IMG/VR virus record: IMGVR_UViG_3300021431_000094
Location: 35,915 to 99,914 of that record
Strand: one strand, 5' to 3'
Origin: a virus
Lineage: Duplodnaviria > Caudoviricetes
DNA length: 64,000 nt
A program made the translations under genes and the position numbers. Below are positions 13,945 through 50,381 of the stretch, one piece after another. Under the pieces are notes generated by a model that had not been told where the DNA came from, made no database searches, and was given only the letters and a program-made list of their open reading frames with translations. Within the stretch, counting starts at the first letter, position 1; every line of letters starts with the position of its first letter.

Positions 13945-13996
13945 CAAAGATAGAGGAAAAAATGTGTAGGGAAAGTAGTAAAAAGGTTGAAACTTT
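13945..13996 (-). promoter_or_regulatory. Structural-gene promoter: -7 box TATCTTTG plus upstream palindrome
   Basis: TAnnTTTG at 13952-13945 (minus strand); palindrome at 13982-13996; 29-nt spacer. Confidence 0.8.
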
Positions 13997-14003
13997 AAGA
14001 TAG

Positions 14004-14026
14004 ATAGAAAAGATAGATTAGATAGA
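14004..14026 (+). repeat. 9-bp-period ATAGA array between two divergent promoter boxes
   Basis: ATAGA at 14004, 14013, 14022. Confidence 0.7.
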
Positions 14027-14033
14027 CATGAAT

Positions 14034-14085
14034 AAAGGATGAACCTTTAAATGGAACTCAGAGAGGGAAGTACATTGTAATTTTG
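14034..14085 (+). promoter_or_regulatory. Capsid operon promoter: palindrome plus -7 box TAATTTTG
   Basis: aaaggatgaaccttt at 14034-14048; TAATTTTG at 14078-14085; 29-nt spacer. Confidence 0.8.
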
Positions 14086-14140
14086 CAGGTGAAAAATTAT
14101 AACGAACAAAAAAATAATATAATAACAAAAGGAGATAAAA

Positions 14141-15376
14141 ATGGCAGATGATTCTGATAATTACGGAGCAGGAATCGTTCTGGTGGATGATCCCGACTTC
14201 GTCCCTTTGGATGAATTGCTAGGGAAGACAGAAGAGGAGAAAGAGGTAGTAGAAAAGGAAGAGGGCAAGGAACCAGAGGGAAAGGAAGAAACAAAGAAAA
14301 ATAACTCAGAAGCCGAGGGCGAAGAAAAAAACACGTCCGGACAAGGTAGGCAGGAAGAGGAAAAGGAAAAAGAAGTGAGCGAGGACACCGACCCGAAAGG
14401 TCAAGGTTCTCCTGAAACACCATCCTCCATTGCCTTGGCTTTACAAGATTTGAAAAAGGTTGGTGTTCTACGCACACTTGATGATAAGACACTGGCATCG
14501 GTAAAAGAGGCTAGTGAACTAAAAGACCTATTCCAGCAGGAGATAGAGAATCTGCGGAGCGAGGACCAGAAGCGTTTAGCCGAAAATCAGAAGCGGCTGG
14601 AAGAGATACTGAGCACTGGGATGAACCCTAGCGCAGTGCAGTTCTACGAGCGCGAGACGAAGCGGCTGAACGACTATGACGAAAAGATGCTGGAAGAAGA
14701 AGGTCCGAATGGCGATGAAGCGCGAAAAGCCATTTTGACATTGCAGTACCGACTGAAACGATACTCTGATGAAGACATGAAGGAACTCATAGATAAGAGT
14801 TTCGACAGTGGCAAGGACAGGGATGATGCCAAGAAGGCATTGAGGTTCTGCCGAGAGACCTACGACAATGCCTACAAGAATGCCGTCGCTGAAGCCAAGG
14901 AAGCCCGTGAGAAACAGCTGGAGGATAACCGAAAGCGGATGGAAGCCATGCGTGAGGAAGTCATGAACGGCAAGGGCTACCTGGAGGACTTGAAGGTAGG
15001 AAAGAGTCAGCGGGAAGAAATCTTCGACTACATTGGCAAGCCGACGTATGAGTTGAAAGACGCAGATGGCAATGTGGTACGAGACAGTAAAGGAGACCCG
15101 GTGAAAGTGAGTGGGCTGACGAAGTTTTGCCGAGAGCATACAGACGAAGCGAATCGATTGTTTGCCACCATACTGGTGTTAACCAATGAGGGAAAAGACT
15201 TCTCGAAGCTCTTCAAAGGACCGGTAAGCGAAGCGGAGAAGCAGATAAACAAACGGCTTGAAGATGCCTTTGTGAACGGAACCTCGCGTAAGCCGAACGG
15301 TAGCTTTGCACCCACGGAAGGACTCAGCCAGGTGATAGACTTTGACCAGATAAAAGGGCTAGCCACCGACGAATAG
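14141..15376 (+). CDS. Putative capsid scaffolding protein
   Basis: Acidic disordered N-terminus followed by helical coiled coil; immediately upstream of MCP as in crAss-like phages. Confidence 0.7.
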   Translation: MADDSDNYGAGIVLVDDPDFVPLDELLGKTEEEKEVVEKEEGKEPEGKEETKKNNSEAEGEEKNTSGQGRQEEEKEKEVSEDTDPKGQGSPETPSSIALALQDLKKVGVLRTLDDKTLASVKEASELKDLFQQEIENLRSEDQKRLAENQKRLEEILSTGMNPSAVQFYERETKRLNDYDEKMLEEEGPNGDEARKAILTLQYRLKRYSDEDMKELIDKSFDSGKDRDDAKKALRFCRETYDNAYKNAVAEAKEAREKQLEDNRKRMEAMREEVMNGKGYLEDLKVGKSQREEIFDYIGKPTYELKDADGNVVRDSKGDPVKVSGLTKFCREHTDEANRLFATILVLTNEGKDFSKLFKGPVSEAEKQINKRLEDAFVNGTSRKPNGSFAPTEGLSQVIDFDQIKGLATDE

Positions 15377-15415
15377 AGAAGAAAAAGTAGAATATCAACC
15401 AAAAAATAAGAAACA

Positions 15416-16954
15416 ATGCCAAGTAATTTTAGACCGTATCAGTTTACCAGACCTCAGACGATAGCCACCGAGGTCACCCATCGTAAACACCTAGCAGCCT
15501 TGGGAATGTTGAAAGACATCAGCATCCCAGAGGTAATCCAACGATTTGGAACGGAGAATGACGACGTAAATTTCGACACACTCATCAGCAATCAGAAGAC
15601 GGAGTACTTTGACGATGACCGTCCCTTTAGCTGGCAGACTATCGGCCGCCGCCTGAAACGGTGTGAGCTGAAAGAGGCCCGTTTGATGAATGGCGCCGTG
15701 ATTGACGAGAACTACACTGGCGGCCCCATCGGTGTAGGAGGAGAGCATTTCTTCCTCGTCTTTCGTACCAAGCTTTTCCATTTTGGCGAGTTGCTTATCG
15801 GCAGAATGCGCAGCCACTATCAGATGCAGATCGTGCAGCAACCTATCAGTGAGGGCAGCGATACTGTGTACGAGGTGCAGTTGGTGACAGGCAACGACAC
15901 CGGTATGCAGAAAGACCTGCTGTACAGCGGAGAGCAGTTTACCTACGAGTATAGCCTTGCCGAGTCGGAGGGCTCAAATCCCCGTGGCGGTATCAGAGCT
16001 CAAACCATGAGCAGAGACCGCAGTGAATGGACTACCATCCGTAAGGACAAGACCTTTACTGGCCGAGCCGACCGACAGCAGGCATTCCTGGTAGACATAC
16101 CCGTCGTGACCAGTAGTGGTCAGAAAGGTGTTTACCATTCGTGGTTTGACCTGGAGTCGGAGATTTTCCGTGAAGAGTGGAAAGAAGAGAAAAGTCGTGT
16201 GCGTCTTTTTGCCCGCAGCAACCGCACTGCCAGCGGTCTGTACCTGAATTTGGGTGAGAGTGGCAACGTGGAGAAGCAGGGAGACGGTTTCATTGCCCAG
16301 ATTGAGCGCGGCAATGTAGGCGAGTATAACGGATTTGGCCGTTATTTCAGCCTGGAGCCCATGGTGAACATGCTGACCAAGGCCGTCATCGAAGGGAAGG
16401 TGCCTTTGAACCGCCGTAAGTGGGTTGTAGTGACCGGAGCCTATGGCATGAAACAGGCCAGCCAATGGATTGAAAGCCAAACCAAGGGATGGAAACAGTT
16501 GGAGATATCCTCGACATTGGGTATTGTCAATCGAGTATCGAGTAAGGATGCCAGTGTTGCCCTCGGCTATGGTGCCCAGTTTACCACCTACCGCGCACCT
16601 ATGGGAATCGAGCTAAACTTTATGGTGGATGCCCAGCTCGACGATCCCGACAGAAACATGGAGCCTGGCCCCGATGGTATTGGTACGATGAGTTCGTATG
16701 TATACTACATCATGGACCTGGGCAACGAAGCATTCCCGAACTTCGTGAACTGCCGACTGAAAGATACCAAGTTTGAAGATGAGTTCTTCTATGTCATCGG
16801 TGCCCGCAATCCTTGGGGATTTTCTCTGCCTAATAACCTCCGAGCCCATGGCAAGGACGAGAGCTCTATGGGAGTCATGGCCACCTTTGGCGGTTATGTA
16901 CGCGACCCATACAGATGTCTCGTGTATAAGCCTTCGGGCTATGTGCTTGGTTAA
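15416..16954 (+). CDS. Major capsid protein (crAss-like)
   Basis: 512 aa; crAss MCP-like segments (THRKHLAAL, YEVQLVTG, SEWTTIRK, GDGFIAQIE, YRAPMGIELNFMVD); gene order; downstream stabilising hairpin. Confidence 0.9.
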   Translation: MPSNFRPYQFTRPQTIATEVTHRKHLAALGMLKDISIPEVIQRFGTENDDVNFDTLISNQKTEYFDDDRPFSWQTIGRRLKRCELKEARLMNGAVIDENYTGGPIGVGGEHFFLVFRTKLFHFGELLIGRMRSHYQMQIVQQPISEGSDTVYEVQLVTGNDTGMQKDLLYSGEQFTYEYSLAESEGSNPRGGIRAQTMSRDRSEWTTIRKDKTFTGRADRQQAFLVDIPVVTSSGQKGVYHSWFDLESEIFREEWKEEKSRVRLFARSNRTASGLYLNLGESGNVEKQGDGFIAQIERGNVGEYNGFGRYFSLEPMVNMLTKAVIEGKVPLNRRKWVVVTGAYGMKQASQWIESQTKGWKQLEISSTLGIVNRVSSKDASVALGYGAQFTTYRAPMGIELNFMVDAQLDDPDRNMEPGPDGIGTMSSYVYYIMDLGNEAFPNFVNCRLKDTKFEDEFFYVIGARNPWGFSLPNNLRAHGKDESSMGVMATFGGYVRDPYRCLVYKPSGYVLG

Positions 16955-18042: not shown

Positions 18043-18855
18043 ATGGCAAAAATTGAAACATACACATATGAAGGCAACCCTATCACCTTTACAAAAGACA
18101 ATAATGTGATGGTGAATGCGACTGAGATGGCTAAGCCGTTCGGAAAGAGAATTATTGATTGGCTGAATAATCAGTCTACCAAGAACTTTATTGCAGCATT
18201 ATGCGAGGTGAGAAAAAGCGTCTCGTCTGATTTAGTGAAAGTTATACATGGTGATAATGGTGGCACCTGGATGCATGAAGATGTAGCCATGGAGTTTGCC
18301 AGATGGCTTTCACCTATATTCGCCATCTGGTGTAATGACCGAATTAAAGAACTTATCAGTAAAGGTTATTCAATGATGCCTGACTTTTCGAATCCTGCCG
18401 AGGCTGCCCGAGCATGGGCAGACGAATATGAGCGCAGACAGCTGGCCGAGAGAGAGAACCTAAAGTTGACTGAGCGAATCGAGGAGATGGAGCCGAAGGT
18501 CAGTTATTATGACCAGGTTCTTCAAAGTCCTGACCTAGTGACCACTACGCAGATAGCGGCAGATTATGGAATGTCTGCCAAGACGTTCAATCAAAAACTT
18601 GCTTCATTGGGAATACAGCGCAAAATGAATTGCCAATGGTTACTTAGAAATGGATATACGCAGTCTAAGACAAGTGCCGTGGAGAATGGCAAAGGTGTAA
18701 TGACAGTGATGTGGACCTATTGGACGCAGAAAGGCCGTTTGTTTGTTTATGATTTATTCAAACAAAACGGAATCCTGCCTTTGATAGAACGTGATGATAC
18801 GAAGCAGGATGACTGCCCTGTAATAGTAAGAAAAATTGTAATCACAGAACTATAA
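18043..18855 (+). CDS. KilA-N plus KilAC/ANT phage antirepressor-family protein
   Basis: MVNATEMAKPFGK..GTWMHEDVAMEFARWLSP (KilA-N); PKVSYYD..TTTQIAADYGMSA..WTQKGRLF (KilAC). Confidence 0.9.
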   Translation: MAKIETYTYEGNPITFTKDNNVMVNATEMAKPFGKRIIDWLNNQSTKNFIAALCEVRKSVSSDLVKVIHGDNGGTWMHEDVAMEFARWLSPIFAIWCNDRIKELISKGYSMMPDFSNPAEAARAWADEYERRQLAERENLKLTERIEEMEPKVSYYDQVLQSPDLVTTTQIAADYGMSAKTFNQKLASLGIQRKMNCQWLLRNGYTQSKTSAVENGKGVMTVMWTYWTQKGRLFVYDLFKQNGILPLIERDDTKQDDCPVIVRKIVITEL

Positions 18856-20805: not shown

Positions 20806-20837
20806 ATAGAGTAGATAGAAGAGATAGAGAGGATAAT
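20806..20837 (+). repeat. 9-bp-period ATAGA array
   Basis: ATAGA at 20806, 20815, 20824 (ATAAT at 20833). Confidence 0.75.
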
Positions 20838-20839: not shown

Positions 20840-20891
20840 AAAGGATGAAACTTTGATAAAGGAAAGATGCTGTATATAAATAGTACTTTTG
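20840..20891 (+). promoter_or_regulatory. Tail/muzzle operon promoter: palindrome plus -7 box TACTTTTG
   Basis: aaaggatgaaacttt at 20840-20854; TACTTTTG at 20884-20891; 29-nt spacer. Confidence 0.8.
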
Positions 20892-20911
20892 CATGAATAA
20901 AAAAAAATAAT

Positions 20912-21664
20912 ATGGCGACATTTGGACAGATAGCACACGCTATCCAGGATTTTTCGAAGACGATAAGTGATGATGCGATAATCAACATTGACCATATCAT
21001 CTTTCTAATGAGCAAATACCGAAACTATTTGCTTTCGAATCCGAACACAAAAATAAAAGATGCAGACTACCAGACAATATGTGTAGATGTAGAACCCGGC
21101 AATGATGGCAACATCTGTGGTGGTAAGTCGTATTTAGTTAGCACAGAAAAGGTGCCAACAGTGATAGGGAGAGGCAGCGTGAATGTTGCCCCACCAGCAG
21201 GCTTTCTGTACGGATACAGATTTCAGTGGGTTCCCTACCAGCAATTTCAGTTTGTAGGATACAACAAGTGGCTGTATGGGCTGATTTACGTGACGATAGG
21301 GCCGGATGGCAAACTATATGTGACGGGACATAATATGGGATTTATGCATCTGGAGCGGATAAGAATGACGGCCCTGTTTGACGATATAGAGGCAGCGGGT
21401 GATATGGAGTGTGACGATAACTGTGAAGTAGTGACGTGCGACATAGAAGACCGGGAATTTCCGATGGAGGCAGGTCGCATACCGTTGCTGATGAAATATG
21501 TAACGATGGAGATAACAGCGGCCGCATGGCAGCCCAGGGATGATAAGAACAACGCAAATGATGACCTATCAGAGTTTGCAAGAGCATTACAAGTATACAC
21601 AAATAATGCTTTCAAGCGCAAGATGCAAGGAAGCCAAGGAGAGGAGGAAAAGAATGCCTTATAG
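20912..21664 (+). CDS. Putative tail ring protein
   Basis: ISDD..HIIF..KYR..L, YQTIC, CDIEDREFPME, DDKNNANDDL; crAss ring-protein pattern. Confidence 0.7.
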   Translation: MATFGQIAHAIQDFSKTISDDAIINIDHIIFLMSKYRNYLLSNPNTKIKDADYQTICVDVEPGNDGNICGGKSYLVSTEKVPTVIGRGSVNVAPPAGFLYGYRFQWVPYQQFQFVGYNKWLYGLIYVTIGPDGKLYVTGHNMGFMHLERIRMTALFDDIEAAGDMECDDNCEVVTCDIEDREFPMEAGRIPLLMKYVTMEITAAAWQPRDDKNNANDDLSEFARALQVYTNNAFKRKMQGSQGEEEKNAL

Positions 21665-22076
21665 CCAAGAAACTAACTGGTTGAATATGACAATTAAAAG
21701 GGTGGGAGAACCGATACCAAAAGCGAAAATGAAGGAGCTTATGGATGAACTATTGTATCGTTTAGGAGATAAGATGATGGACGAAGGATATATCCTGAAA
21801 TTGCTTTATGATATGGGTGAGATCAATTTAGTTGCGACAGAGAACTATGAGTTCCAGAATAAGATATATGATTGGGAAAAGATGAATTCGGACCCGAAAC
21901 ATAAACGTAGATATAAAAATATCTCAAAGATACAATATTACTTTATGTGGCACAAAGGAAAGACACCCAAAGCGAGATTGTACTTTGTTCGAATCAGTGA
22001 AGATCTGAATAAACGATTGCACGACCGATTGATGAAAGGGGAGAAAGTTTTTAGTTACGAAAGGAAGAAGAAATGA
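21654..22076 (+). CDS. crAss-like HU/IHF-related small basic protein (likely start ATG 21654)
   Basis: G..LKL..MGEI, DW and F.WHK pattern; lies between ring and muzzle genes. Confidence 0.45.
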   Translation: MPYSQETNWLNMTIKRVGEPIPKAKMKELMDELLYRLGDKMMDEGYILKLLYDMGEINLVATENYEFQNKIYDWEKMNSDPKHKRRYKNISKIQYYFMWHKGKTPKARLYFVRISEDLNKRLHDRLMKGEKVFSYERKKK

Positions 22077-25000
22077 GAAAGAATGCAGTGATTACGCCTA
22101 TAGGTATGAACCGAGACCTTGCGATGAGCAAGTTTGATGCACGGTTTGCCTATGAGAATATGAACCTAAGACTCGTGACAGACCGACACACGAGCAAGTT
22201 TGTATTAACAAACGAAAAGGGCCCTGCAGAAATAACAGTAAAATTCAACACCAATGGTCAATGGATAAAGGACAATCTAAAAGGGACGGTCCTAGGAGTT
22301 GCAGTCATAGGCAACAAGATGGCAGTATTCACTCATGGAATTATATGGGTTAGGTATCCGGAAACGGGAGAGCTGATTTCCATTAATAGGGACTATATAT
22401 ATCGTTTAGACTTTGAAGACGGAGCAAGTGATGGAGCACCGATAAAGGGATATTTGCTGTATGAAGGAGACCTGAACTTTGACCTGGAATATCCAATAGA
22501 GGCAATGACTTTTTACGAAGCAGAAGAAATACAAAAAGTTTATTGGACGGATGGAAAGAACCAGCCAAGGCTCATCAACATCATGCAAGTAGACAAGACA
22601 TACAATGATAAAAGTTTCGATTATGCCCAAGAGATAGGAGGTAGTGAGTCGATGAGCATAGAACGCATAAACAATAGTAATGGTTTGTTTCCCAGTGGCA
22701 CGATTCAGTATGCCTTTACCTACTATCATGAATATGCGCAGGAAAGTAGTGTGGTATCAGTGTCGGATATGCATTATCTTTCGGATGACGAGCGAGGGAG
22801 TGCGCCAGATGAGACTGTTGCTTGTAGCTTTCGAATAATGATGAGCGGATTAAGAAAAGACTATGATGGAGTGCGGCTATATAGCATCATCAGAAGTGCG
22901 AAAGACGGGCTACCTATAGTGAAAAGGCTGGCAGACCTAAGCATAGATAGCGCAGGGCAGGCGGTTTTTGTGGATACAAATCGGTCAGGTGAGGATATGG
23001 AAAGTACCTATTTGCTTTATGTAGGGGCGAAAGACATCACCTGCCAAACGATGACCCAAAAAGACAATACCGCTTTTTACGGTAATATCAAAGAGAAGCA
23101 CTATTATGTAAGTAGTGCTGTGAGAGCGAAAGTAAAATTGGGGACACAGGTTGGGGGTGTTTTCAATAGTTTGGGATTTAGAAACAACAAAGAGATAGCA
23201 CTTTCTAAGACTCTTGGGAAATATGAATGGGAATCGCAGCTTGACAAATCTGCTTCTGAAATACGATATTTTAAATATCATGAAACCTATAGATTTGGAG
23301 TACAGTTTCAAGACCGATATGGGAACTGGAGTGATGTAGTTCGAATAGAAAGTGGAGATAGTGCTAGTGGAAATGATTTTTTACAGAACCTAAAACCACA
23401 AAGTGAAGTAAAAGAGTTGATGAACTATGGTATAAACGTGCTGGCGAGTGACCGTAATAACTTAAAAAGGCGAGTGGCTACATTCGGCGGTGAAATAAGG
23501 TTAGTGGAATTAGGTAGCTTATTGGACGATTATGTAGCGATGCGGCCAGTAGTAGTATATCCTGATTATGGAGACAGAAGCGTATTAGCCCAAGGCATAT
23601 TGACACCCTCGCTATACAATATTGAAGACCGAGTAAAAGGCGGAGTTTATGGAATGATGTCATGGTTCAGCAGGCCCTTGATTAGTGAGAGAGATCTGAG
23701 TCCGGCAGATATTGCCGACTTAGAAGAGCCCAATAGGATAACACGGCATGGAGGATTGGAAGTGAGACATTATCATCCCTTGCCGCCGACAAACAGGTAC
23801 TATGGAAGTGATGGGGGATATGGCAGTAATGCCGAGATTGTAAATAATTATGAAGGTTATATTGAAAATGGAAGTAATAGTCCGTTCAAGACCATAGACT
23901 ATACGATATGGGCTAATGTATATCCATGGCAAGAGAAGTCAGTAAGCAATAGTCAAGTGACAGTAGAAAACAGAGCAAGTCATTTGCGATCTGAGTTTTT
24001 TGTTGACCAGAGTATAGAGACGTTTCATAGTCCAGAAGTAGAATATTTAAGTGAGATGGCAAAGATGGATATGGACGGAGTGAAGATGAGGATAGTAGGC
24101 TTAGTGCCTCTGACATATCATAATGAGGGTGTATACATGGCAGCAGAACGAATAGCAGAAGATAATTATTTCCATACACCCAAAAGAGAGGTTCAGCAAG
24201 GCGGCGTGGCAAACACATACAAGGGCCAATGGCAGTTCACGGAATTTGGTGGGATACAAGCTGACTTCCATGATGATTATGTGGGGATGGATGAAGAGAA
24301 CCATCATGTGGACTACTATGGTACCAATAAGATATATCCATTCCATACCAAGACGCTGACCTATGAAGAGGTGATAGAGAACTATGATAGACTGAGAGGG
24401 CCAGGCCTAGGGACATTTTATCCAAGGTACCTTTGTGAGCCGAAAAGCACATTGCAAAAAAAGATATATGACAGTATCAGATACTCATTTGAAAGTATAC
24501 CGCTGGATGATGAAGTCATAATAGATATTGATAAGCCTAGCTATTATAACACAGTAGACAGTGGGTTGGTTCAATTTGAAGTAGACGGAAGTGCGAAAAT
24601 CTTTGACTTTAGCGTCAATAGGATGGTAGTACCAAATGTAAGAACTAAAGAATGGGGGAACTATGAATATACGAACCATTTCGTATATCCCGGAATCGGA
24701 ACATTGGTTGACAGGTATGCTGGCCAGGAAGACCGTCGGACAACAGCATCATCATGCGTAGTAGGAACAGAAGCCGTTCCAGTCCAATATCGAGGGACTA
24801 CAGGAATGGTGTTACACTTGAAATCAGTTACACGTAATAACAAAAAGGAAATAAGTGCACTGCCAAAATTTGGTACATACAATGACGTATATGCTAACAA
24901 TGGAACTCCGTTAGAAAGAAGTAGAGGTATAGAATGGGCAGACAATACAGAAAGTGCCGTAACATCTAGATCATTTGATATGAGTGGGAAGCGTTTTATG

Positions 25001-36770: not shown

Positions 36771-37054
36771 CTTTGCCGTTGGATTTAGTAAATGAGCTGG
36801 CAGAAAAGTATGGTTGTAAACCGGACCTGATCCATATGATGTATAGAAATCTTATGGCTTGTATAAAGCGGCAGATGGTATTCAATGTAAAATATCTGTT
36901 GCCCAAGGGAGAGAAACCCAAAGACCTAATAATCCCACACATCTGCAATATATATGTAAATGTAAAATTTCAAAAGTTCACACAAAATGCAAAGAAGAAA
37001 AGAATACAAAAAAATCGTACCAACGTACAATCAAATAGTAACGACAGCCTATAA
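36749..37054 (+). CDS. Small basic HU/IHF-like protein
   Basis: LVNELAEKYG..IH.MY..IIPHICNIYV; basic tail; crAss pre-terminase block. Confidence 0.4.
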   Translation: MRYRGKITLPLDLVNELAEKYGCKPDLIHMMYRNLMACIKRQMVFNVKYLLPKGEKPKDLIIPHICNIYVNVKFQKFTQNAKKKRIQKNRTNVQSNSNDSL

Positions 37055-38006: not shown

Positions 38007-40306
38007 TGGACCTTACAGCATTACAATTAAACAAGTATCAGACAAAATACACTAACGAACTACTACAAAAACTACCCGAAATTGTAGTTCAATGGCTCGA
38101 TGATGCCATAACGAACCATGTCTTTATCCAGCGGCTCATTTCAAAAGACAGACCATTGGCTAAAGACTGTGAGAAAGACGAAAAAGGAAGAGCAATATTA
38201 GATCTTACCAATCCGTATATCCTCACCGATGTAAGTTATTTCACGCAGACAGCGGACTTTTTTCGTAACAACAAATGCTATACCTTCATTAAAAGGAACC
38301 CAAATCCCAATTCAGAATATAGACGATTCTGGCGGCAAGAGATAAGGCGGTGTTGGGACGGAATGGTAAGACCTGAAGATGGTGCCTATGTGACAGGTCT
38401 TGAATACTTCTACCTGAACTTTTACCGGATGCTAGTCTCAAAGACAACAGAAGGTTCAAAGAGGGCAAGACGTATATATGACTTTCCAAGTTTTTTTGAA
38501 CTGGCACATTACCGCTACCGGTATTTGGAATATGCATTGGAAGCAGGTCTTAATGCGATAGAACTATCAAAACGTGGTAGCGGAAAAAGTTACTCTATAG
38601 CATCTATTCTGGCTCACAATCTTATATTAGGCATAGATGCCGAACAGAGAAAGGGGACGGTGGGAGGATTCATTGCTTCTGATAAGACCTATCTTGACAC
38701 AAAGAAAGATGGAACGTTGAAGAAATTCGTGGATGAACTGGCGTTCCTGCGTAAGAATACTGAGTTTCCCCGACTGATGACCAGCCAGAGCGGTAATGAA
38801 ATGGCTTGGAAGAAAGGTTACAAGGATACTGGTGGTGGTGAAGACGGAGAGAGCAATATTGTATTCGGGACAAGTGTGGCCAACGAATCAGACAAGCTTC
38901 GAGGCAAGCGAGGCTGGTTCATGTATGAGGAAATGGGTAACTTCCCGAATCTTTATGAGACCTACAATGCCAATCTACGTGGTGCTTCGGAAGGTGACTA
39001 CAGTATCGGATTAATCTATCTTATCGGTACTGCCAACAATAAGGAGAGCAACTTTGAAAGTGCCAAGACCTTACTTTATAAACCCAAAGAACATTCCATA
39101 TATAGTCTTCCCAATGTCTATGATGAGCAGAACAAAGGTCGTGATGAATTTGGCTTATTCACACCAGCTTTTTTGAATCGTCTGGGCTGTTATAATAAAG
39201 ACGGTATCAGTGATGTCACAAAGGCATTGCTTCAAATTATGCTGGCCCGTTACAAGGCTTATGAATCTGGAGAAGCATTCGCCCTGTTGCATGCAATCGC
39301 AGAAGACCCTATAGACCCTGCAGAAGCCATGATTCAAAGCCGTAAGGCATACTTCCCCACGACGGCTTTGAACGAACGACTGACGTGGCTTAACACCCAC
39401 CCTGAGGAACTGAACCGTCATTTGGTAGGAGAACTTGTTATGAAAGATGATGGAGAAGTGGTTTTTAAGCCAACCCATGATATACCACTACGCCATTGGA
39501 ATAGGAGCAAGGAGAATAAGAGTGATGAAAATATCGAGGGAGCATTAGAGATATTTGAAATGCCACAGAAATCACCACGTACTGGTAAGATAATTGAAGA
39601 TAGGTATATAATTGGCGTGGATCCTGTGGACCAGGAAGAGGGAGTAAGTGCATCATTGTTTAGTGTGTTGGTATTCGACCGCATGACAAACACTATTGTA
39701 GCAGAATATACTGGACGTAAGGAATTTTCTGATCAGAACTATGAAATTGTTAGACTGCTTTGCTATTACTATAATGCCAGATGTCTCTATGAGAACAATA
39801 TCCACGGAATGTATAACTATTTCAAACAATATAACTGTACCTATTTGCTGTATGACTGTCCGGAATGGTTGAAACAACAGGACAAAGTACATTATAATGG
39901 TGTCGGTGTCACCGTTAAGGGAGTACGAAGGACCAAACCCATCATCGATGTGCAGATAAAGCTGATTCATGACTGGCTTCTCACACCCCAAGACATATCT
40001 GTCGTAGATGATAATGGCAATATTCAGGTTGTAAATAAACCATTGTTATATACTATAGACAGTCCTGCATTGCTGGAAGAGTTAATAGGCTATTATGACA
40101 AGGCAAATGTAGATAGAATAAGTGCGTTAGGCATGGTGATGATAGCTCGGGAACAATATATGGAAATGGGTGAAGACAAGATAAATGACGGGCAAGACCT
40201 TATGGCAGATAAAAACTATCTTGGAAACAGTAAGTTTTTCACGAACCTGTATGACAAACGTAGGTCTGTAACCTATGGAGGTGTTTTTCCCAGAGATACC
40301 AATTAA
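38006..40306 (+). CDS. terL: Terminase large subunit
   Basis: Walker A KRGSGKS, Walker B MYEEMG, nuclease IGVDPVD, YENN, NVDRISALG. Confidence 0.95.
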   Translation: MDLTALQLNKYQTKYTNELLQKLPEIVVQWLDDAITNHVFIQRLISKDRPLAKDCEKDEKGRAILDLTNPYILTDVSYFTQTADFFRNNKCYTFIKRNPNPNSEYRRFWRQEIRRCWDGMVRPEDGAYVTGLEYFYLNFYRMLVSKTTEGSKRARRIYDFPSFFELAHYRYRYLEYALEAGLNAIELSKRGSGKSYSIASILAHNLILGIDAEQRKGTVGGFIASDKTYLDTKKDGTLKKFVDELAFLRKNTEFPRLMTSQSGNEMAWKKGYKDTGGGEDGESNIVFGTSVANESDKLRGKRGWFMYEEMGNFPNLYETYNANLRGASEGDYSIGLIYLIGTANNKESNFESAKTLLYKPKEHSIYSLPNVYDEQNKGRDEFGLFTPAFLNRLGCYNKDGISDVTKALLQIMLARYKAYESGEAFALLHAIAEDPIDPAEAMIQSRKAYFPTTALNERLTWLNTHPEELNRHLVGELVMKDDGEVVFKPTHDIPLRHWNRSKENKSDENIEGALEIFEMPQKSPRTGKIIEDRYIIGVDPVDQEEGVSASLFSVLVFDRMTNTIVAEYTGRKEFSDQNYEIVRLLCYYYNARCLYENNIHGMYNYFKQYNCTYLLYDCPEWLKQQDKVHYNGVGVTVKGVRRTKPIIDVQIKLIHDWLLTPQDISVVDDNGNIQVVNKPLLYTIDSPALLEELIGYYDKANVDRISALGMVMIAREQYMEMGEDKINDGQDLMADKNYLGNSKFFTNLYDKRRSVTYGGVFPRDTN

Positions 40307-40356
40307 AGGCTCAGCCTTTTAACGGAGCCATGACATACATTTTCTTTCTATTTTTG
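40305..40356 (+). promoter_or_regulatory. Portal promoter: palindrome plus -7 box TATTTTTG
   Basis: aaaggctcagccttt at 40305-40319; TATTTTTG at 40349-40356; 29-nt spacer. Confidence 0.8.
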
Positions 40357-40376
40357 CAATAGAAAAAAAATAGAAG

Positions 40377-42779
40377 ATGTCAGAAGATAATAAAATAAAG
40401 GAATTCCCACCACAGCGCATACCTAATTCGAAGAAAACAAAGAAATGGCGTGAAGACTGCATCCGGTATGCAGAGAACGTTAGTGTTTTGTCGAATTCAT
40501 CAGTCAGGATGAATAAGATCAATATCCGACGTAACTACCGACTTTTTGGCGGTAAGCTAGATATGCGTGATGTGGAACAAATCCTAAACCCCGAAGGAAT
40601 AGACTACGGTGTTGAGACGAAAAAGATACAACATTATCCTATTCTTAATTCCAAGATTGACATATTACTTGGAGAAGAGCGCAATAGTATAATTGAGGAC
40701 AGGGTTGTCATAAGTAATCCATCTGCCATATCCGAGATAGAGGAAGCAAAGATACAAGAAATCAAGAACAGACTGCAGGCAGATATTGTCGATGAAACTA
40801 TGAGCGAAGAGGAACGCCAAATGCGGTTGCAGGAGTTTGATTTAACATTCAATTATGACTATCAAGACCTTAAGGAAAAGAATCTCAACGAATTGTTGAA
40901 CCATTATAAGACAGAATATAATTTTCCTGCCATGTTTAACGAGGGATACATGGATGCCCTTGTAGCCAAGACAGAATGCTATTATTGCTATATAGAATGT
41001 GGTGAACCAAAAGTAGAAAGAGTCAATCTACAAGAACTATCTTTTTGGGGGAGTAAGAGTAATCGAATCGAAGATTATCCTTATGTTGTTCGCGAAAGAT
41101 ATATGTCGGCTAATAACATTTTAGATATATGGGGAGACCAAATGAGCGATGCCGATTACAGAAAATTCGATAGACTTATTCGAGGAGAGTTTGAAGGGAA
41201 TAATCTTTATGTCAGTGAAGACTATTATCATTTCCGTTATGGAGATAATCCGACCTTTGTGGACTCCCAGGGTTATTTTAAATTTGATGATGATACAGAC
41301 ATAAGCGAGCTACCTTATGATATAGGGAGCGGCATCAGGGTTTTGGAAGTCTTTTGGAAATCGATGTCTCAAGTATTAGCGGTACATTACTTTGATGAAG
41401 ACGGAAATAAGCAGGTGAAGTTTAGAACTCCTGGTTATATACCGGATGAAGACGCGGGAGAGACAGTAAAAAAGTATTGGAAAAACGAAGCATGGCATGG
41501 TGTGATGATTGGAGCCGGCAAGGATGCCATCTTTGTTGACGTAGGGCCTTGCCAGGTTCAATATAACAGATTGGGAAATCCTTCAAAGTGTCACTTTGGT
41601 TTTGTCGGCACTATCTATAACAATAACGACTACGAAGGAATGAGTGCAGTAGACAAGCTAAAGCCATTGTCATATCAATATGATGTAGTGATGGCAAAGC
41701 TAAATGAGCTTATTGCACGCAACTACGGCAAATTGACAGTGATGGATTTCGCCAGAGTACCGGCAGGATGGGAGCCTGAAAAATGGGCTTACTTCTTAAA
41801 GCTCGGTATATTCGCCATAGATTCTATGAAAGAAGGAGCCATAGGTGCTGCTAAAGGTAAACTGGCAGGCGGTGTTGCCAACACACCTTTGACTGCAGAT
41901 GGAGAGTTAGGTTCGAGCATCCTCAATTATGTTCAACTTTTAATGAACATAGACGCGAGTATGGAAAAGATGTTGGGCCTAACGCCTCAGCGAATGGGTT
42001 CTGTAAAAAATAGAGAGACTGTAGGAGGTGTCGAAAGAGCCGTGGCTCAGAGTAGTAATGTTACTTATTCCATGAGTTCAAAACATGATGATTTAAAGAT
42101 TCGTGTTGAATGGGTGTTTCTAGAAACGGCGAAGATTGCGATGAGAGGAAAAACGAAAAAATTCCCCTATATTCTTTCTGATGGTTCAATCAGACATGTC
42201 ATGTTGGATGGAAACGAAGTATCTGAACTTGATTTTGGCATGGTGCTGATGAATGGTTATGACGTTCAATCGATGCAACAGAGCATTGACCTTTTGGCAC
42301 AAGCAAAGATGCAGAACAACCTACTATCTGCTAGTGCTTATATGGAACTAAAGCGTATGACATCCATTTCCGAAAAGATAAAATTGTTGAAACGAGAAGA
42401 GGCTAGAATGCGTCAGGAAGCCCAACAGGCCCAGCAGCAGCAATTGCAGACACAGCAGATGGAAATTCAGATGAAGATGCAGCTTGAACAGCTAAAGTTG
42501 AGATTAGAAGAGCAAAACAATATCAGAGACAACGAGACAAAGATATTGGTTGCTCAGATTACTGCACAAAATTCAATCGAATTGCAGTCATCGCAAACGC
42601 AGGCAAATGGAGACAACTCTATAGAGAACGAGAAGTTAAGGAATGAAATGGAGAAATTCAATCAGGAAATGGAGTTAGAGAAAGAAAAGTTAGCATCACA
42701 AGAGAGGATGAATAGAGACAATAACGAGGTAAAAAAACAAATTGCACGAATGAAACCACATAAAACAAGCCAAAAGTAA
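40377..42779 (+). CDS. Portal protein (crAss-like)
   Basis: FPPQR..KK..KW, IQHYPI..KI..LLGEE, G.TPQR.G..RETVGGVERAV.QSS, Q-rich coiled-coil barrel. Confidence 0.9.
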   Translation: MSEDNKIKEFPPQRIPNSKKTKKWREDCIRYAENVSVLSNSSVRMNKINIRRNYRLFGGKLDMRDVEQILNPEGIDYGVETKKIQHYPILNSKIDILLGEERNSIIEDRVVISNPSAISEIEEAKIQEIKNRLQADIVDETMSEEERQMRLQEFDLTFNYDYQDLKEKNLNELLNHYKTEYNFPAMFNEGYMDALVAKTECYYCYIECGEPKVERVNLQELSFWGSKSNRIEDYPYVVRERYMSANNILDIWGDQMSDADYRKFDRLIRGEFEGNNLYVSEDYYHFRYGDNPTFVDSQGYFKFDDDTDISELPYDIGSGIRVLEVFWKSMSQVLAVHYFDEDGNKQVKFRTPGYIPDEDAGETVKKYWKNEAWHGVMIGAGKDAIFVDVGPCQVQYNRLGNPSKCHFGFVGTIYNNNDYEGMSAVDKLKPLSYQYDVVMAKLNELIARNYGKLTVMDFARVPAGWEPEKWAYFLKLGIFAIDSMKEGAIGAAKGKLAGGVANTPLTADGELGSSILNYVQLLMNIDASMEKMLGLTPQRMGSVKNRETVGGVERAVAQSSNVTYSMSSKHDDLKIRVEWVFLETAKIAMRGKTKKFPYILSDGSIRHVMLDGNEVSELDFGMVLMNGYDVQSMQQSIDLLAQAKMQNNLLSASAYMELKRMTSISEKIKLLKREEARMRQEAQQAQQQQLQTQQMEIQMKMQLEQLKLRLEEQNNIRDNETKILVAQITAQNSIELQSSQTQANGDNSIENEKLRNEMEKFNQEMELEKEKLASQERMNRDNNEVKKQIARMKPHKTSQK

Positions 42780-43857: not shown

Positions 43858-45072
43858 CTACAAAGAATTGAATTTTTTCATACTTTCTTCTTTCATTTTG
43901 TCGACAATCCCTAAGTAGCGTTTTAGCGTGTTGAATGATTTGTGGCCAGTCCACTTCATGAAGACCGCCGGCTGTATGTCTAAATAAAGAGCCATAGTGA
44001 TGAATGTCTTTCGGGCTACATGAAAGGTCAATGCTTCTGCTAATGTCATTTCCTTAATAATCCTTTCATTTCCTAAGAATATAGTCTTGTGTATCATTCG
44101 GTTAAGACCTGCCATCTCACCTATTGCTTTAAGGTATAAATTGGTTGATTGGTTGCTTAAAACAGGTAAAGCAAAATCACCTTTGATGTTCTTATATTTT
44201 TCCAAAATACCTTTGCTATAGTCATTTAGTTCAATTTTAAGGGAGTCATTTGTTTTTTCAGTGATGATTTCAAAATAATCCTCATGAATATTAGTTTTGC
44301 GTAATTGTTTGACATCGGAATACCTTAGTCCAGAAAAGCAGCAGAAGATAAAGACATCTCTTGTGGCTCTGTATTGAACTGGCAAATTACAGTTAGCTAC
44401 TTTTTTTATTTCGTCGGGATTTAGATAGATAGGTTCATCAAAGGCATAATGGAGTTTTGGTTGTAAAGTGAATCCTATATCAGTAGGAGTATATTTGTTT
44501 TCGAAGGCCCATTTCATAAAGCGTCTGAATTTGCGTAATATAGAATCGACCGATAAATTAGTCAATCCTTTATTTTGTAGGAAAGAAAGAAAACCAAGTA
44601 TAATGTTTTCGTCTATTTGAGCTATTGGTGTTCCTGGTCTATATTCGTGAAAATCCGTTTTGACGGTTAGAAGGTTTTTTTTAGTGTTGGGGCTCCATTG
44701 CTGCATGAGTTGTTCCTTTTGGATAAAGATGTTGAAGACCTCTTCAAAGGTTTGGCCATCATTATTCTTTTCATCCTGGTTTAGACCTAGAATTTTTCTT
44801 ATATCATCTTTAGTAGGAACTTCAAATTTCTCACCCTTCTCGTAGAAGAAATCCTGTAAGTTTTTTTTCATTTGAGTGAGCTGCCTATTGATAAATGCAG
44901 CGTCCCTCCAGTTTGGCTTGCATTGCTGTCTATTCTTATCCCACATCTTTTGTTCCACATGCCAAGGCAGATAAATCTGGAGTCTTTGATTGGCCCAGGT
45001 GAGACTAAGTGATATGCTATAACCGTCTTTCCTTTTTACAGGGTGAAGATAGTAACGTATGTTGTATTTCAT
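43858..45072 (-). CDS. int: Tyrosine integrase (Bacteroidota type)
   Basis: N-terminal arm-binding domain; SGLRYSD, KT, FHVARKTF, TGHK, KRY catalytic residues all present. Confidence 0.95.
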   Translation of the reverse strand: MKYNIRYYLHPVKRKDGYSISLSLTWANQRLQIYLPWHVEQKMWDKNRQQCKPNWRDAAFINRQLTQMKKNLQDFFYEKGEKFEVPTKDDIRKILGLNQDEKNNDGQTFEEVFNIFIQKEQLMQQWSPNTKKNLLTVKTDFHEYRPGTPIAQIDENIILGFLSFLQNKGLTNLSVDSILRKFRRFMKWAFENKYTPTDIGFTLQPKLHYAFDEPIYLNPDEIKKVANCNLPVQYRATRDVFIFCCFSGLRYSDVKQLRKTNIHEDYFEIITEKTNDSLKIELNDYSKGILEKYKNIKGDFALPVLSNQSTNLYLKAIGEMAGLNRMIHKTIFLGNERIIKEMTLAEALTFHVARKTFITMALYLDIQPAVFMKWTGHKSFNTLKRYLGIVDKMKEESMKKFNSL

Positions 45073-45079: not shown

Positions 45080-45571
45080 TTATGTACCAAAAGGTTCTTC
45101 GTTCAAATTTAACAGGGAAGATTGTTCTAAGTCTTTTTTATTATATGGTTCTACATGCTGTGGGTTCATTTCTTTATAAAGAGATAGCTGTTCTTTGAGA
45201 GAGTTTATAAGTTCGTTTTTTAGCTCAGCATTCTTTTTTATAGCATCAATTAGTTCATCCTTTTGTTCAATCAATCGAATGAGTTGGGAGGAAGTCCATC
45301 CATAGTATTTATCTTTTTCGTCCTTTGGTTCAAGACCGTCGACATACATATTGCCATTACCGGTGAGCAACCATTCGATGTTGAATTCTTGGAAATGGTC
45401 ACAAACTTTATTGCACATCTTTCTCGACAGGTCCAATCTGCCGCTGCTTATCTGCCGTAAGGTAGATTCCTTGACACCGATCTCATCAGCCATTTGCTGC
45501 CAAGTCATCTTTTTGATTTCCTTTATTCTGACTAACCTTTTGCAGGCATTAATATCAATAGCTTTATTCAT
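45080..45571 (-). CDS. CI-like XRE helix-turn-helix repressor
   Basis: TWQQMADEIGVKESTL..G, NIEWLLTGNGNM; upstream of int and divergent from the lytic operon. Confidence 0.85.
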   Translation of the reverse strand: MNKAIDINACKRLVRIKEIKKMTWQQMADEIGVKESTLRQISSGRLDLSRKMCNKVCDHFQEFNIEWLLTGNGNMYVDGLEPKDEKDKYYGWTSSQLIRLIEQKDELIDAIKKNAELKNELINSLKEQLSLYKEMNPQHVEPYNKKDLEQSSLLNLNEEPFGT

Positions 45572-45741
45572 TTTTTTAAGGATTAAATTGGTTAAACATG
45601 AGTTTTAAGTCTAGCTATATTTTGTCTTTGACATTTCCTTTGTATTTTTTAACACATCAATAATACATTTTATTACAATGATTTAGGTAATTGCATAGAT
45701 TATTTAATAAACATTTTACTCCACATATCAATATTTATTTG

Positions 45742-45749
45742 TACCTTTG
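45742..45749 (+). promoter_or_regulatory. Early rightward promoter -7 box in the immunity region
   Basis: TACCTTTG(CA) in the AT-rich divergent intergenic region. Confidence 0.65.
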
Positions 45750-45853
45750 CAATATGATATAATAAATACATTTATCTATAATTTATGTATTCGAAGAGGT
45801 AAAATTATTTTATGAATATAGTATATTAAAGTATGTTTTAACTTTATTTAGAT

Positions 45854-46111: not shown

Positions 46112-46537
46112 ATGGAACCTATCATCATAGAAAAAAAGAAAGGCAGACTACTAGGTCGAAGCATTATGAAAACGTTGCTCAATGGATTGGGCGATGGTTT
46201 TTATAAGGTTACGATAAAGAAGATGCACCACAGCCGTAGTAATCAACAGAACAGATGGCTGTGGGGGCAGATATATCCGAGGATACTGCATGGCCTGATT
46301 GATGCTGGATGGGAGAACGTAACGACAGAAGAGCAGGTACATGAAATGTGTAAGGTGATGTTTGCCGGAACCGATATAGTAAATCCTAATACAGGTGAGA
46401 TTACAACAATACCTAATAGGACGAGTGAAATGGATACAGTTACTTTCAGCCTATATTGTATGCAACTAAGGATGTTTGCGAGTGATATGTTAGGGATTAC
46501 GATTCCGGAACCTAATGAAAGGCTATTGCAAGAATGA
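46112..46537 (+). CDS. NinB-like recombination protein
   Basis: RSNQQNRWLW..HE..K..TSEMD..F..Y..LGI.IP. Confidence 0.7.
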   Translation: MEPIIIEKKKGRLLGRSIMKTLLNGLGDGFYKVTIKKMHHSRSNQQNRWLWGQIYPRILHGLIDAGWENVTTEEQVHEMCKVMFAGTDIVNPNTGEITTIPNRTSEMDTVTFSLYCMQLRMFASDMLGITIPEPNERLLQE

Positions 46538-46733
46538 AAAGGTATCAGAAAGAAAGGCCAAACTAGGAACATGTTCTGATTGTGAGTATAGTACTCCCAA
46601 AGGAACAAAGAGTCTTAAAGGAGAGTTTTTCATGGGCGGTTGTGACTTTTGGACACCAGATGTTAAACACCCTAATTTTTACTTTCTAGATAAAGAATGT
46701 GAGAATGGGCATTATAAGAAGCGAAAGGATTAA
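46515..46733 (+). CDS. Small Cys-rich protein
   Basis: CSDC..GC..C. Confidence 0.55.
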   Translation: MKGYCKNEKVSERKAKLGTCSDCEYSTPKGTKSLKGEFFMGGCDFWTPDVKHPNFYFLDKECENGHYKKRKD

Positions 46734-49667: not shown

Positions 49668-49685
49668 CATTTAAAATATACAGAT

Positions 49686-49889
49686 ATGAATCACGACATA
49701 AAACATTGCAATGGAGAAAACTGTCCTGTAAGAGAGACCTGCCATAGATATGTGGCACACGTTGATCTAATCGAACCAGCCAAAGTAAACGAACCAATCA
49801 GTGGTTTTCAGTCCTATTTAAATGCATCAACATGCATCAGTGAAGATCTTAAGATGTACTGGGGAGAGAATTATCAAATTAAGTGCTAG
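49686..49889 (+). CDS. Small Cys-rich protein
   Basis: DI.HC.G..CP.RETC.RY. Confidence 0.65.
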   Translation: MNHDIKHCNGENCPVRETCHRYVAHVDLIEPAKVNEPISGFQSYLNASTCISEDLKMYWGENYQIKC

Positions 49890-49895
49890 GGTGTC

Positions 49896-50093
49896 ATGGG
49901 TAAGCAATACACACTTTTTGATATAGCCGAAATAGAAATAAGGCCTTGTTGTGGAAATTGTGAAAATTACTCCTGGGTTAAATATTTTGGTGGTAGACAC
50001 CAAGAGTGCAGCCGAGTGCTGAACAGAGCCCACCGGCCATACAGACCCAAAGCCAGTGGAGTAATATGCCCCTATTATAAACGAAAGGAATAA
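49896..50093 (+). CDS. Small Cys-rich protein
   Basis: CCGNC..C..CPYY. Confidence 0.6.
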   Translation: MGKQYTLFDIAEIEIRPCCGNCENYSWVKYFGGRHQECSRVLNRAHRPYRPKASGVICPYYKRKE

Positions 50094-50095
50094 AG

Positions 50096-50314
50096 ATGGA
50101 AATAGAGACTAAATTTGGCCTAGGTGAATCAATATTTTATATTGACAAAGGATTGGTTAGAGAAGCGAAAATCATTGAAATCAATATAAGAATGATACAA
50201 TGTAGCATACTAACGGTCATTTATGGACTAGAGGATGGTAATTGTATCTTAGAGGGTGGGGCCTTTAGTTCAAAAAAAGCCCTTCATGATTATATAGATG
50301 CGCAATGTCGCTAA
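50096..50314 (+). CDS. Hypothetical protein
   Basis: IETKFGLGE..F.SK..L pattern common in Bacteroidota phages. Confidence 0.6.
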   Translation: MEIETKFGLGESIFYIDKGLVREAKIIEINIRMIQCSILTVIYGLEDGNCILEGGAFSSKKALHDYIDAQCR

Positions 50315-50329
50315 TTAAAAGTAAGTATT

Positions 50330-50381
50330 AAAGTTTCATCCTTTACGGATTGTGACAAAAAAAAATACCTTGCTATTTTTG
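50330..50381 (+). promoter_or_regulatory. Tail hub/fibre/lysis operon promoter: palindrome plus -7 box TATTTTTG
   Basis: aaagtttcatccttt at 50330-50344; TATTTTTG at 50374-50381; 29-nt spacer. Confidence 0.8.

Follow-up and report, generated by a model that had tools for sequence, protein, structure and literature searches.

A putative activator box at a fixed distance from the -7 element in virion-gene promoters of a crAss-like phage

What reads a 15-bp palindrome that recurs, always at the same distance from a host-type -7 element, in front of the virion genes of a crAss-like phage? The initial annotation of the window (the whole stretch of 64,000 nucleotides analysed here) had described five such palindromes heading structural and lysis blocks and had proposed that a dimeric phage-encoded activator recruits host RNA polymerase to them. 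Below, the composite element is mapped across the genome, compared with its counterparts in relatives and set against other ways of reading it.

A composite element in front of virion operons

All five palindromes were found where they had been described (Table 1), and the distance of 29 nt from palindrome to TAnnTTTGCA was exact at each of them. The consensus AAAGKNTSANMCTTT matched five times in the window against 0.02 expected. The full count is six rather than five, one site lying beyond the window: an identical composite at genome positions 27654-27705 (window position -8260) is followed 21 nt later by the start codon (ATG) of the virion RNA polymerase gene, a 2994-aa ORF with a DFDID motif. 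Genome-wide, these six compare with a simulated mean of 0.02 and a maximum of 1, and a search of the genome for degenerate composites (up to three mismatches, spacers of 27 to 31 nt) returned none. The core AAAG-N7-CTTT occurs 12 times in the genome, and the six copies with the full consensus are exactly the six that stand beside a -7 box.

Written with its 5' T, the dyad is T-AAAGKnTSAnMCTTT, its symmetry reaching positions 5/11 (K/M) and 7/9 (T/A). All six copies also share a T immediately before the box and an S immediately before the TA. The two 4-bp half-sites lie 11 bp apart centre to centre, one helical turn. When the T of TAnnTTTG is taken as -12, the dyad spans approximately -56 to -42 with its centre near -49, which matches neither the classic class I nor the class II activator position of E. 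coli. In the divergent promoter pair, each promoter has its own copy of the box at 29 nt.

The element TAnnTTTG, which had been recognized as the -7 element of the Bacteroidota primary sigma factor, was present at all six sites and was extended in every case to TAnnTTTGCA. A -33 TTG (19 to 21 nt upstream of the TA) was found at one of the six, the 50330 promoter, at 21 nt. The six box promoters head the RNA polymerase/cargo, 487-aa plus 2427-aa, major capsid protein (MCP), virion-structural, portal and tail/lysis operons; "late" is used here as judged from gene content (virion and lysis operons), and by gene content the box is confined to virion or RNA polymerase-cargo operons, as the first description had it. 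Gene assignments were made for MCP (15416-16954; phrog_11589, E 9e-55), portal (phrog_6547, E 5e-104), the large terminase TerL (phrog_6681) and the amidase (59605-60027; phrog_822), and the operon headed by the 20840 copy gave matches to phrog_9863 and phrog_28748 (E 1e-58). The ATG of the gene at 12458-13921 lies 21 nt past its -7 box.

The -7 boxes at 31621, 35570 and 45742 had been described as lacking the palindrome, and none is there. These box-less (class-2) promoters serve tRNA, nucleotide-metabolism, regulator/TerL and replication genes. The phage, uncultured and crAss-like, is apparently temperate; its genes include those for an integrase and for an HTH protein of cI-like type. The data support the box as a discrete element with fixed geometry, confined to virion-gene operons.

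Table 1. Promoter elements and candidate regulator genes in the window
Feature	Position	Strand	Sequence	Context
Late box copy	13982-13996	minus	AAAGTTTCAACCTTT	Leftward promoter of 487-aa plus 2427-aa operon; unchanged in sibling contig
-7 box	13943-13952	minus	TATCTTTGCA	29 nt downstream of box 13982-13996
Late box copy	14034-14048	+	AAAGGATGAACCTTT	Rightward promoter of 411-aa / major capsid protein operon; unchanged in sibling contig
-7 box	14078-14087	+	TAATTTTGCA	Partner of box 14034
Late box copy	20840-20854	+	AAAGGATGAAACTTT	Before genes for 250-aa virion protein, 178-aa, 1526-aa virion structural, 893-aa and 696-aa proteins; same in sibling contig
-7 box	20884-20893	+	TACTTTTGCA	Partner of box 20840
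Late box copy	40305-40319	+	AAAGGCTCAGCCTTT	Heads portal gene; overlaps large terminase stop codon; unchanged in sibling contig
-7 box	40349-40358	+	TATTTTTGCA	Partner of box 40305
Late box copy	50330-50344	+	AAAGTTTCATCCTTT	Heads 176-aa gene and tail block up to amidase gene; unchanged in sibling contig
-7 box	50374-50383	+	TATTTTTGCA	Inside 14-bp perfect inverted repeat 50366-50401
Class-2 promoter without box	31607-31630	+	ATCGATTTTTCTTTG abutting TATCTTTGCA	Heads tRNA-Leu, pyrophosphatase, nucleotide-kinase-like and YopX genes
Class-2 promoter without box	35556-35579	+		Heads small regulator genes, GroES-like gene and TerL
Class-2 promoter without box	45728-45751	+		Divergent from cI-like repressor gene; heads NinB-like, DnaD-like and primase-helicase genes
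Candidate box-binding protein, 160-aa winged-helix	36288-36770	+		Orthologue of IAS virus gp091 "VpsT-like regulator", E 6e-11
Second candidate regulator, 110-aa Cys-rich, zinc-ribbon-like	35652-35984	+		Syntenic with and weakly similar to IAS virus gp093 "putative transcription factor" (pairwise E 2e-4)

Conservation and distribution of the box

A sibling contig, approximately 94% identical, keeps all six composites. Relative to it, 0 of 90 positions had changed in the box, 0 of 60 in the -7 element plus CA and 13 of 174 in the spacers, with no spacer indel (box plus -7, 0/150, versus spacer, 13/174; Fisher p = 2.8e-4). To judge from these substitutions, purifying selection on the box relative to the spacer is supported.

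In IMG/VR, the strict composite was present in more than one copy only in this lineage, and 185,579 prokaryote species genomes yielded seven single matches, four of them in Bacteroidota. These seven and the two IMG/VR matches beyond the lineage showed no protein similarity to the phage and were taken as chance. A loose AAAG-N7-CTTT scan of IMG/VR gave mostly single chance matches among the matches listed, and IAS virus has no AAAG-N7-CTTT composite. Such counts support the view that the box is not a widespread host element.

The initial annotation had suggested a motif search over the whole genome and relatives, which gave the six composites here and, in distant relatives, a different 15-bp box at the same position to within 1 nt, confined to late promoters. 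The 56 unique portal promoters of the relatives share a conserved imperfect dyad, TTAATAAwTyAyTTA, that ends 28 nt upstream of the TA; its proximal block was present in 48 of 55 of their portal promoters versus 7 of 136 promoters upstream of the regulator genes (p = 7e-30). Another lineage carries TAAG-N7-CTTA, in the same 4-N7-4 frame, at 28 nt, and in the IAS-virus lineage the palindrome of the late promoters has the -33 TTG at its centre. Since the box sequence varies by phage lineage (CTTT, CTTA and others) over a constant -7 box, the pattern fits a factor carried along by the phage itself. The portal homologues P0002-P0009 are 56-68% identical, and a portal-alignment scan of IMG/VR and of JGI/ENA metagenomes recovered the sibling and otherwise only relatives of 40-44% identity. 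A scan for CTTACA-N5-TGTAAG gave 11 single matches, none accompanied by a winged-helix, portal, TerL or MCP homologue, and added nothing on co-variation.

Candidate proteins and competing readings

The gene at 36288-36770 had been nominated as a possible activator. Its AF2 model (pLDDT 82) has four helices followed by a beta hairpin, a winged helix-turn-helix with TSQRMYELLRDM as putative recognition helix; the top Foldseek matches were the MarR-family proteins ZitR, MepR, SlyA and RovA, at weak E values of 0.03-0.2, a profile search against the PDB gave ZitR (E 0.14), and homodimer structure prediction scored 0.16, neutral as to a dimer. The family was found in 126 of 159 relatives' loci, and in Steigviridae-type crAss-like phages this "VpsT-like" winged-helix gene sits just upstream of the terminase gene. 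CTTA half-sites always go with a helix that reads (A/P)HFQ(V/M)I.., and another helix is present in this phage (CTTT) and in two lineages without the CTTA block; this co-variation covers some six lineages, with phylogeny as a confounder. The winged-helix fold given in the nomination is borne out, and the link to the box is conjectural. The zinc-ribbon-like protein 35652-35984 and the Cys-rich ORFs at 49686-50314, which directly precede one late promoter, are as well placed for regulators as 36288-36770. Pfam and PHROGs gave no match for 36288-36770, 35994-36284, 36749-37054 or these Cys-rich ORFs. HU-like genes had also been put forward; 36749-37054 is without similarity to the IAS HU protein and 21540-22076 bears only a weak resemblance to the HU/IHF-like protein of IAS virus (E 0.066); neither was confirmed as a candidate.

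On balance, the box is probably an activator site for a phage-encoded dimer that acts together with host sigma-A RNA polymerase. The 15-bp dyad would be the operator of a late-gene regulon, and a homodimeric phage DNA-binding protein, for which 36288-36770 is the best candidate, would be made from a box-less class-2 promoter. The homodimer would contact both 4-bp half-sites at their spacing of one helical turn (11 bp) and touch region 4 of host sigma-A or the alpha C-terminal domain, making up for the missing -33, upon which host RNA polymerase would initiate transcription of the six virion operons. Lysogeny would keep the class-2 promoters off and the activator from being made, leaving the six late promoters silent. 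The activator proposed in the initial annotation finds partial support in the discrete, conserved box and the missing -33; binding, dimer state, activation, late timing and the use of host RNA polymerase are what we infer from these patterns. A broader idea, which we offer tentatively as a possibility, is that the "VpsT-like" winged-helix protein is the late-gene specificity factor of Steigviridae-type crAss-like phages, reading a 4-N7-4 15-bp box 28-29 nt upstream of the -7 element, with helix and box co-evolving (HFQ with CTTA; SQRMY with CTTT here).

An upstream block need not mean an activator, because in one study the tripartite-class promoters of phi14:2 ran in vitro on E. coli sigma-70 holoenzyme alone (bioRxiv 10.1101/2020.03.07.982082). 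The host could then read the box without any phage factor, through one of its transcription factors or through the alpha subunit of its RNA polymerase, for which the box would be an UP-like element; UP elements do occupy the span from about -56 to -42. We consider this rather unlikely, given that the composite is not enriched in the 185,579 species genomes (the seven single matches being unrelated to the phage), that the box contains G/C and is dyad-symmetric, unlike A/T-tract UP elements, and that its sequence shifts between phage lineages over a constant -7 box; a factor private to the phage's own host species may nevertheless be involved. Another reading makes the box a negative operator, at which a repressor or other phage protein silences virion genes in lysogeny or early infection, the -7 box alone then sufficing for transcription. 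With an integrase and a cI-like HTH protein among its products, the phage does need to silence its virion genes in a lysogen; repressor operators typically have dyad symmetry, and the MarR-like winged-helix proteins nearest in fold to the candidate are mostly repressors. A negative operator is nonetheless unlikely, as the box lies wholly upstream of the would-be -33, an activator-type position, and five of the six promoters, having no -33 TTG, should be weak unaided. The cI-cro intergenic region carries repeats of ACAYATCAATA and no AAAG-N7-CTTT, which also led us to reject the box as a cI operator.

The loss of the -33 with retention of the -7 element would equally suit a phage protein that remodels or replaces sigma region 4 (compare T4 AsiA/MotA), the box substituting for the -33, and the IAS-lineage palindrome centred on the -33 TTG points the same way. 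Here, however, the box ends 29 nt upstream of the TA, some 8-10 bp beyond the -33 position, and no AsiA-, MotA- or sigma-like gene was present among the scanned proteins, which makes such appropriation quite improbable. That the palindromes are terminators or RNA hairpins of preceding operons, standing before promoters by coincidence, is hardly credible: three copies (20840, 40305 and 50330) do come after a co-directional gene, but the other three (13982 on the minus strand, 14034 on the plus strand and genome 27654) have no co-directional gene upstream, the hairpins, at 0 to -5.3 kcal/mol, are weak and lack a consistent T-run, a terminator scan does not list box 40305 or 50330, and this reading would not account for a distance of exactly 29 nt between palindrome and -7 box.

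Relation to known promoter systems

A tripartite motif that host RNA polymerase recognizes has been described for middle/late promoters of phi14:2 and the beta-crassvirinae (Drobysheva et al., bioRxiv 10.1101/2020.03.07.982082). It stands before RNA polymerase, portal and other virion genes, and its use is rifampicin-sensitive, pointing to the host enzyme; for the third, upstream block, the available part of the text proposes neither interpretation nor factor, and it does not split middle from late classes (bioRxiv 10.1101/2020.03.07.982082). The promoters described here share the host-type -7/-10-like box, the upstream block and the placement before RNA polymerase, portal and virion genes, and promoters of the same positional class were found in IAS-like relatives. 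The tripartite promoters keep a -35-like TTG, which this phage has lost at five of six sites, and the phi14:2 upstream block is an A-tract, whereas the box here is a clean 15-bp dyad of other sequence. The work of Drobysheva and colleagues is said to have been published in Nature in 2021. The initial annotation had regarded its mechanism as not described for crAss-like phages. The tripartite motif qualifies that statement; our searches of the literature turned up no work on a Crassvirales late activator or dyad box.

For crAss-like gene timing after the injected RNA polymerase, published work goes as far as a motif, common to middle and late genes, from which host polymerase reads them. The present phage is a very clean case, with six promoters of equal geometry, a box-less class, few candidate regulators and relatives with another box; given this clean promoter set, the short candidate list and the relatives' boxes, the late switch is directly testable. 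If the specificity-factor reading is true, it would describe the middle-to-late switch of the most abundant human gut phages. Should the phage indeed be temperate, the late-promoter circuit would explain the silence of virion genes in the lysogen. Such promoters could also serve as portable, orthogonal, phage-controlled promoters for engineering of Bacteroidales.

Bayley and colleagues reportedly defined in 2000 the canonical Bacteroidota sigma-A promoter as -33 TTTG / -7 TAnnTTTG. Measured against it, each of the six promoters has a perfect -7 element followed by CA, whereas the -33 is absent in five of six and an extra dyad stands 29 nt upstream. Activator-dependent late promoters are familiar from the temperate phages P2, 186 and P4 (Ogr, B, Delta), Mu (C, Mor) and P1 (Lpa). 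Promoters of the Ogr/C/Lpa type likewise place a dyad or a conserved box at a constant distance ahead of a sigma-70-type -10 whose -35 is poor, in several copies, one per late operon, and in the proposed model they would also have in common an activator from an earlier operon and the use of host RNA polymerase. They differ in that the promoters here, known from sequence alone, have the Bacteroidota -7 TAnnTTTG, another box sequence and a centre near -49, and in that the candidate is a winged-helix protein rather than a zinc finger or a Mor/C protein. Most likely, a phage-made switch protein docks at the box, a classical phage design that would be new for the crAss-like group.

Putative late promoters of the virion operons

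The initial annotation had described a 15-bp palindrome (the late box), placed 29 nt upstream of a host-type -7 box, at five virion-gene loci, and this observation was borne out in full. The window contains five copies of the box AAAGKNTSANMCTTT, where 0.02 would be expected, and TAnnTTTGCA follows each one after exactly 29 nt. All five loci are present, but the total is six: an identical composite of box, spacer and -7 box (AAAGGCTGAAACTTT, 29 nt, TATTTTTGCA) lies outside the window at genome position 27654-27705 (window -8260 to -8209), separated by 21 nt from the ATG of a 2994-aa RNA polymerase gene. The whole genome (the 99,914-bp IMG/VR record, of which the window is bases 35915-99914) contains six composites against a simulated mean of 0.02. 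A genome search that tolerated up to three mismatches and spacer lengths from 27 to 31 nt returned no further credible copy, and therefore the regulon is discrete. The symmetry of the box continues inward (K/M at positions 5/11, T/A at 7/9), and a T directly precedes every copy.

All six sites are also present in the one sibling contig, IMGVR_UViG_3300037400_003531, whose DNA is ~94% identical. Across the six aligned promoters no change was found in the box (0/90) or in the -7 box plus CA (0/60), while 13 of 174 spacer positions differ and no spacer carries an indel (Fisher p = 2.8e-4 for box plus -7 versus spacer; 5e-3 when the box is compared by itself). The spacers are thus free to vary in sequence but not in length, and both elements are under constraint.

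The dyad is absent from all three other intergenic TAnnTTTGCA boxes, which we call class-2 promoters and which share the extension (A/G)TC(G/A)AT(T/A)TTTnTTTG abutting the TA. Since gene content differs between the two promoter types, the functional split proposed earlier is real, with virion genes under dyad promoters and other gene sets under the box-less class.

Features of the phage and of related promoters (window coordinates unless a genome or locus is named)
Feature	Position	Strand	Genes downstream or remarks
Dyad promoter	genome 27654		RNA polymerase (2994 aa), 1418-aa protein
Dyad promoter	13982	-	487-aa and 2427-aa proteins
Dyad promoter	14034		411-aa protein, capsid protein, four further genes
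Dyad promoter	20840		Virion protein, 1526-aa virion structural protein, two large proteins
Dyad promoter	40305		Portal
Dyad promoter	50330		Tail block as far as amidase
Class-2 promoter	31621 (31607-31630)		tRNA-Leu, MazG-like pyrophosphatase, nucleotide-kinase-like protein, YopX
Class-2 promoter	35570 (35556-35579)		Small regulator-like genes, GroES-like gene, TerL
Class-2 promoter	45742 (45728-45751)		NinB-, DnaD-, primase-helicase-like genes
Major capsid protein	15416-16954
Anti-repressor-like gene	18043-18855		270 aa, Ant/KilAC type
Zinc-ribbon-like protein	35652-35984		Weakly like IAS gp093
Winged-helix protein	36288-36770		160 aa
Large terminase (TerL)	38006-40306
crAss-type portal	40377-42779
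Tyrosine integrase	43858-45072	-	Phage_int_SAM_5, Phage_integrase, Arm-DNA-bind_5
cI-like HTH protein	45080-45571	-	HTH_19/HTH_3, beside integrase
Cys-rich ORF	46515-46733
Three small Cys-rich ORFs	49686-50314		Directly before 50330 promoter, at replication operon end
ATAGA arrays	5074-5105, 14000-14026, 20806-20828, 53602-53633, 59571-59613	+	9-bp period
IAS-lineage palindrome	L009 (IAS virus) 9660-9715, 23360-23415, 24330-24380		Also in loci L127, L132, L137, L140, L144

Several other sequence features were observed around these promoters. Two of the five ATAGA arrays lie directly upstream of late boxes, between the divergent pair 13982/14034 and before 20840, and ATAGA is twofold commoner on the plus strand (221 vs 109). 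At the 50330 promoter, the -7 box and the leader lie inside a perfect 14-bp inverted repeat (TACCTTGCTATTTT / AAAATAGCAAGGTA, 50366-50401), which resembles an antisense-transcription terminator or a second operator, because a T-run follows it on the minus strand.

The polymerase ORF lies mostly left of the window (its C-terminus is window 2-796) and carries at residue 2207 DFDID, the motif of crAss virion RNA polymerases; it is identified as the virion RNA polymerase. The leftward replication arm contains a single TAnnTTTGCA box (genome 25372, minus strand; window -10542), directly 3' of a G5/C5 hairpin and lacking both the late box and the class-2 extension. No host-type promoter was found in the remainder of this arm, which fits transcription by an injected polymerase.

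Promoter anatomy and alternative readings of the box

With the T of TA set as -12, the dyad falls at roughly -56 to -42; 11 bp, or one helix turn, separates its half-sites, which adjoin the upstream side of the expected sigma region 4 position. A TTG at 19-21 nt from TA is present in just one of the six dyad promoters, and upstream TTG-type elements occur in class-2 promoters and in promoters of relatives. Judged from sequence, the dyad position, half-site phasing and lack of TTG are the anatomy of an activator-dependent promoter.

The boxes are not terminators: their hairpins are weak (0 to -5.3 kcal/mol) and lack a consistent T-run, and three boxes have no co-directional upstream gene. A general host promoter element is ruled out by the distribution of the strict composite: in IMG/VR, more than one copy per genome is found only in the phage's own lineage, and among 185,579 species, each represented by one genome, there are seven single matches at loci without similarity to the phage. 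Nor is the box a repeat of the cI-cro intergenic region, where the repeats differ.

Candidate regulators and a possible cascade

For an activator of the dyad promoters, the initial annotation had guessed at a dimeric phage protein, either the winged-helix protein or the HU-like genes. The discrete virion-operon dyad and the fold modelled for the winged-helix protein support this in part; the HU-like candidates were not confirmed. The winged-helix protein matches IAS virus gp091, a 'VpsT-like regulator' (35% over 74 aa, E 6e-11), which occupies the same position upstream of TerL, and the family is present in 126 of 159 relatives' loci. Its AlphaFold model (23-sequence alignment, pLDDT 82, confident) has four helices and a beta-hairpin wing; the best structural neighbours, the MarR-family dimers ZitR, MepR, SlyA and RovA, are weak (E 0.03-0.2), as is the profile match to PDB (E 0.14). 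The putative recognition helix is (A/P)HFQ(V/M)I.. wherever the promoter half-site is CTTA and TSQRMYELLRDM in this phage, where the half-site is CTTT. Two lineages without the upstream block in their portal promoters also differ, with QQMQN and PQFNG; the winged-helix homologue of L303 has the helix MSQAHFQMILAKL. That helix sequence tracks the half-site is suggestive only, because independent lineages are few and phylogeny confounds the match.

Further candidates are the zinc-ribbon-like protein and the three Cys-rich ORFs before the 50330 promoter, the latter placed like lambda Q, in the late-regulator position of lambdoid phages. The four Cys-rich ORFs (65-72 aa) gave no family match.

The phage appears temperate, since its crAss-like genome carries tyrosine integrase and cI-like HTH genes, both divergent from the 45742 promoter. 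A cascade would follow naturally from this context: the cI-like repressor would shut the class-2 promoters, a class-2 operon would include the activator gene, and the dyad promoters, lacking a -33 element, would be silent in the absence of the activator. The cI-cro intergenic region contains ACAYATCAATA at two places, among them 45652-45662; one copy overlaps the 45742 promoter, and the repeat is a candidate operator of the cI-like repressor that overlaps core promoters. The anti-repressor-like gene (phrog_63, E 1e-38) lies within the capsid operon.

Comparison with the promoters of relatives

Among GenBank phages, those closest to this one belong to the Steigviridae (IAS virus, DAC15/17, the crAss001 group), with a portal identity of only ~41%. 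In phage phi14:2, middle promoters consist of an A-tract, TTG, N19 and TAnnTTTG, a type of motif termed extended tripartite; middle and late genes were reported as rifampicin-sensitive, and the sigma-70 holoenzyme alone sufficed for transcription (Drobysheva et al., bioRxiv 10.1101/2020.03.07.982082). Within the portion of the Crassvirales literature covered, no description of a late activator or dyad box was found.

Two promoter classes were found in about 125 gut loci of relatives (portal identity 40-44%). Promoters upstream of regulator genes mostly have a plain TTG (112/136); the block [CT]A[CT]T[TA]A, placed 5 nt upstream of the TTG, occurs in only 7 of the 136, versus 48 of 55 portal promoters (p = 7e-30), and in 44 of 91 promoters downstream of the portal. 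Alignment of 56 unique portal promoters showed that the block belongs to a longer conserved element, the 15-bp imperfect dyad TTAATAAwTyAyTTA, of which it is the proximal part and which ends 28 nt upstream of TA. The crAss-like L303-L306 lineage (L303, IMGVR_UViG_3300037453_000171; L304/L305, IMGVR_UViG_3300033463_000056; and L306), whose genomes are complete at roughly 94-100 kb and whose portal identity is about 40%, carries TAAGYG-N3-YRCTTA as a dyad placed 28 nt upstream of TAnnTT(T/C)G before its portal and capsid operons, with an additional middle block, GTAnTTCG.

With 15-bp boxes at 28 nt in relatives and at 29 nt in this phage, the 4-N7-4 late box, set 28-29 nt before the -7 box, is therefore family-wide. 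Late promoters of the IAS-virus lineage contain TCACTTAGA-N6-TCTAAGTGA, a nearly perfect palindrome whose centre coincides with the -33 TTG; this geometry is unlike that of this phage and of most gut relatives. Compared with the late box of its relatives, the version in this phage is private and more symmetric, and the TTG has been lost.
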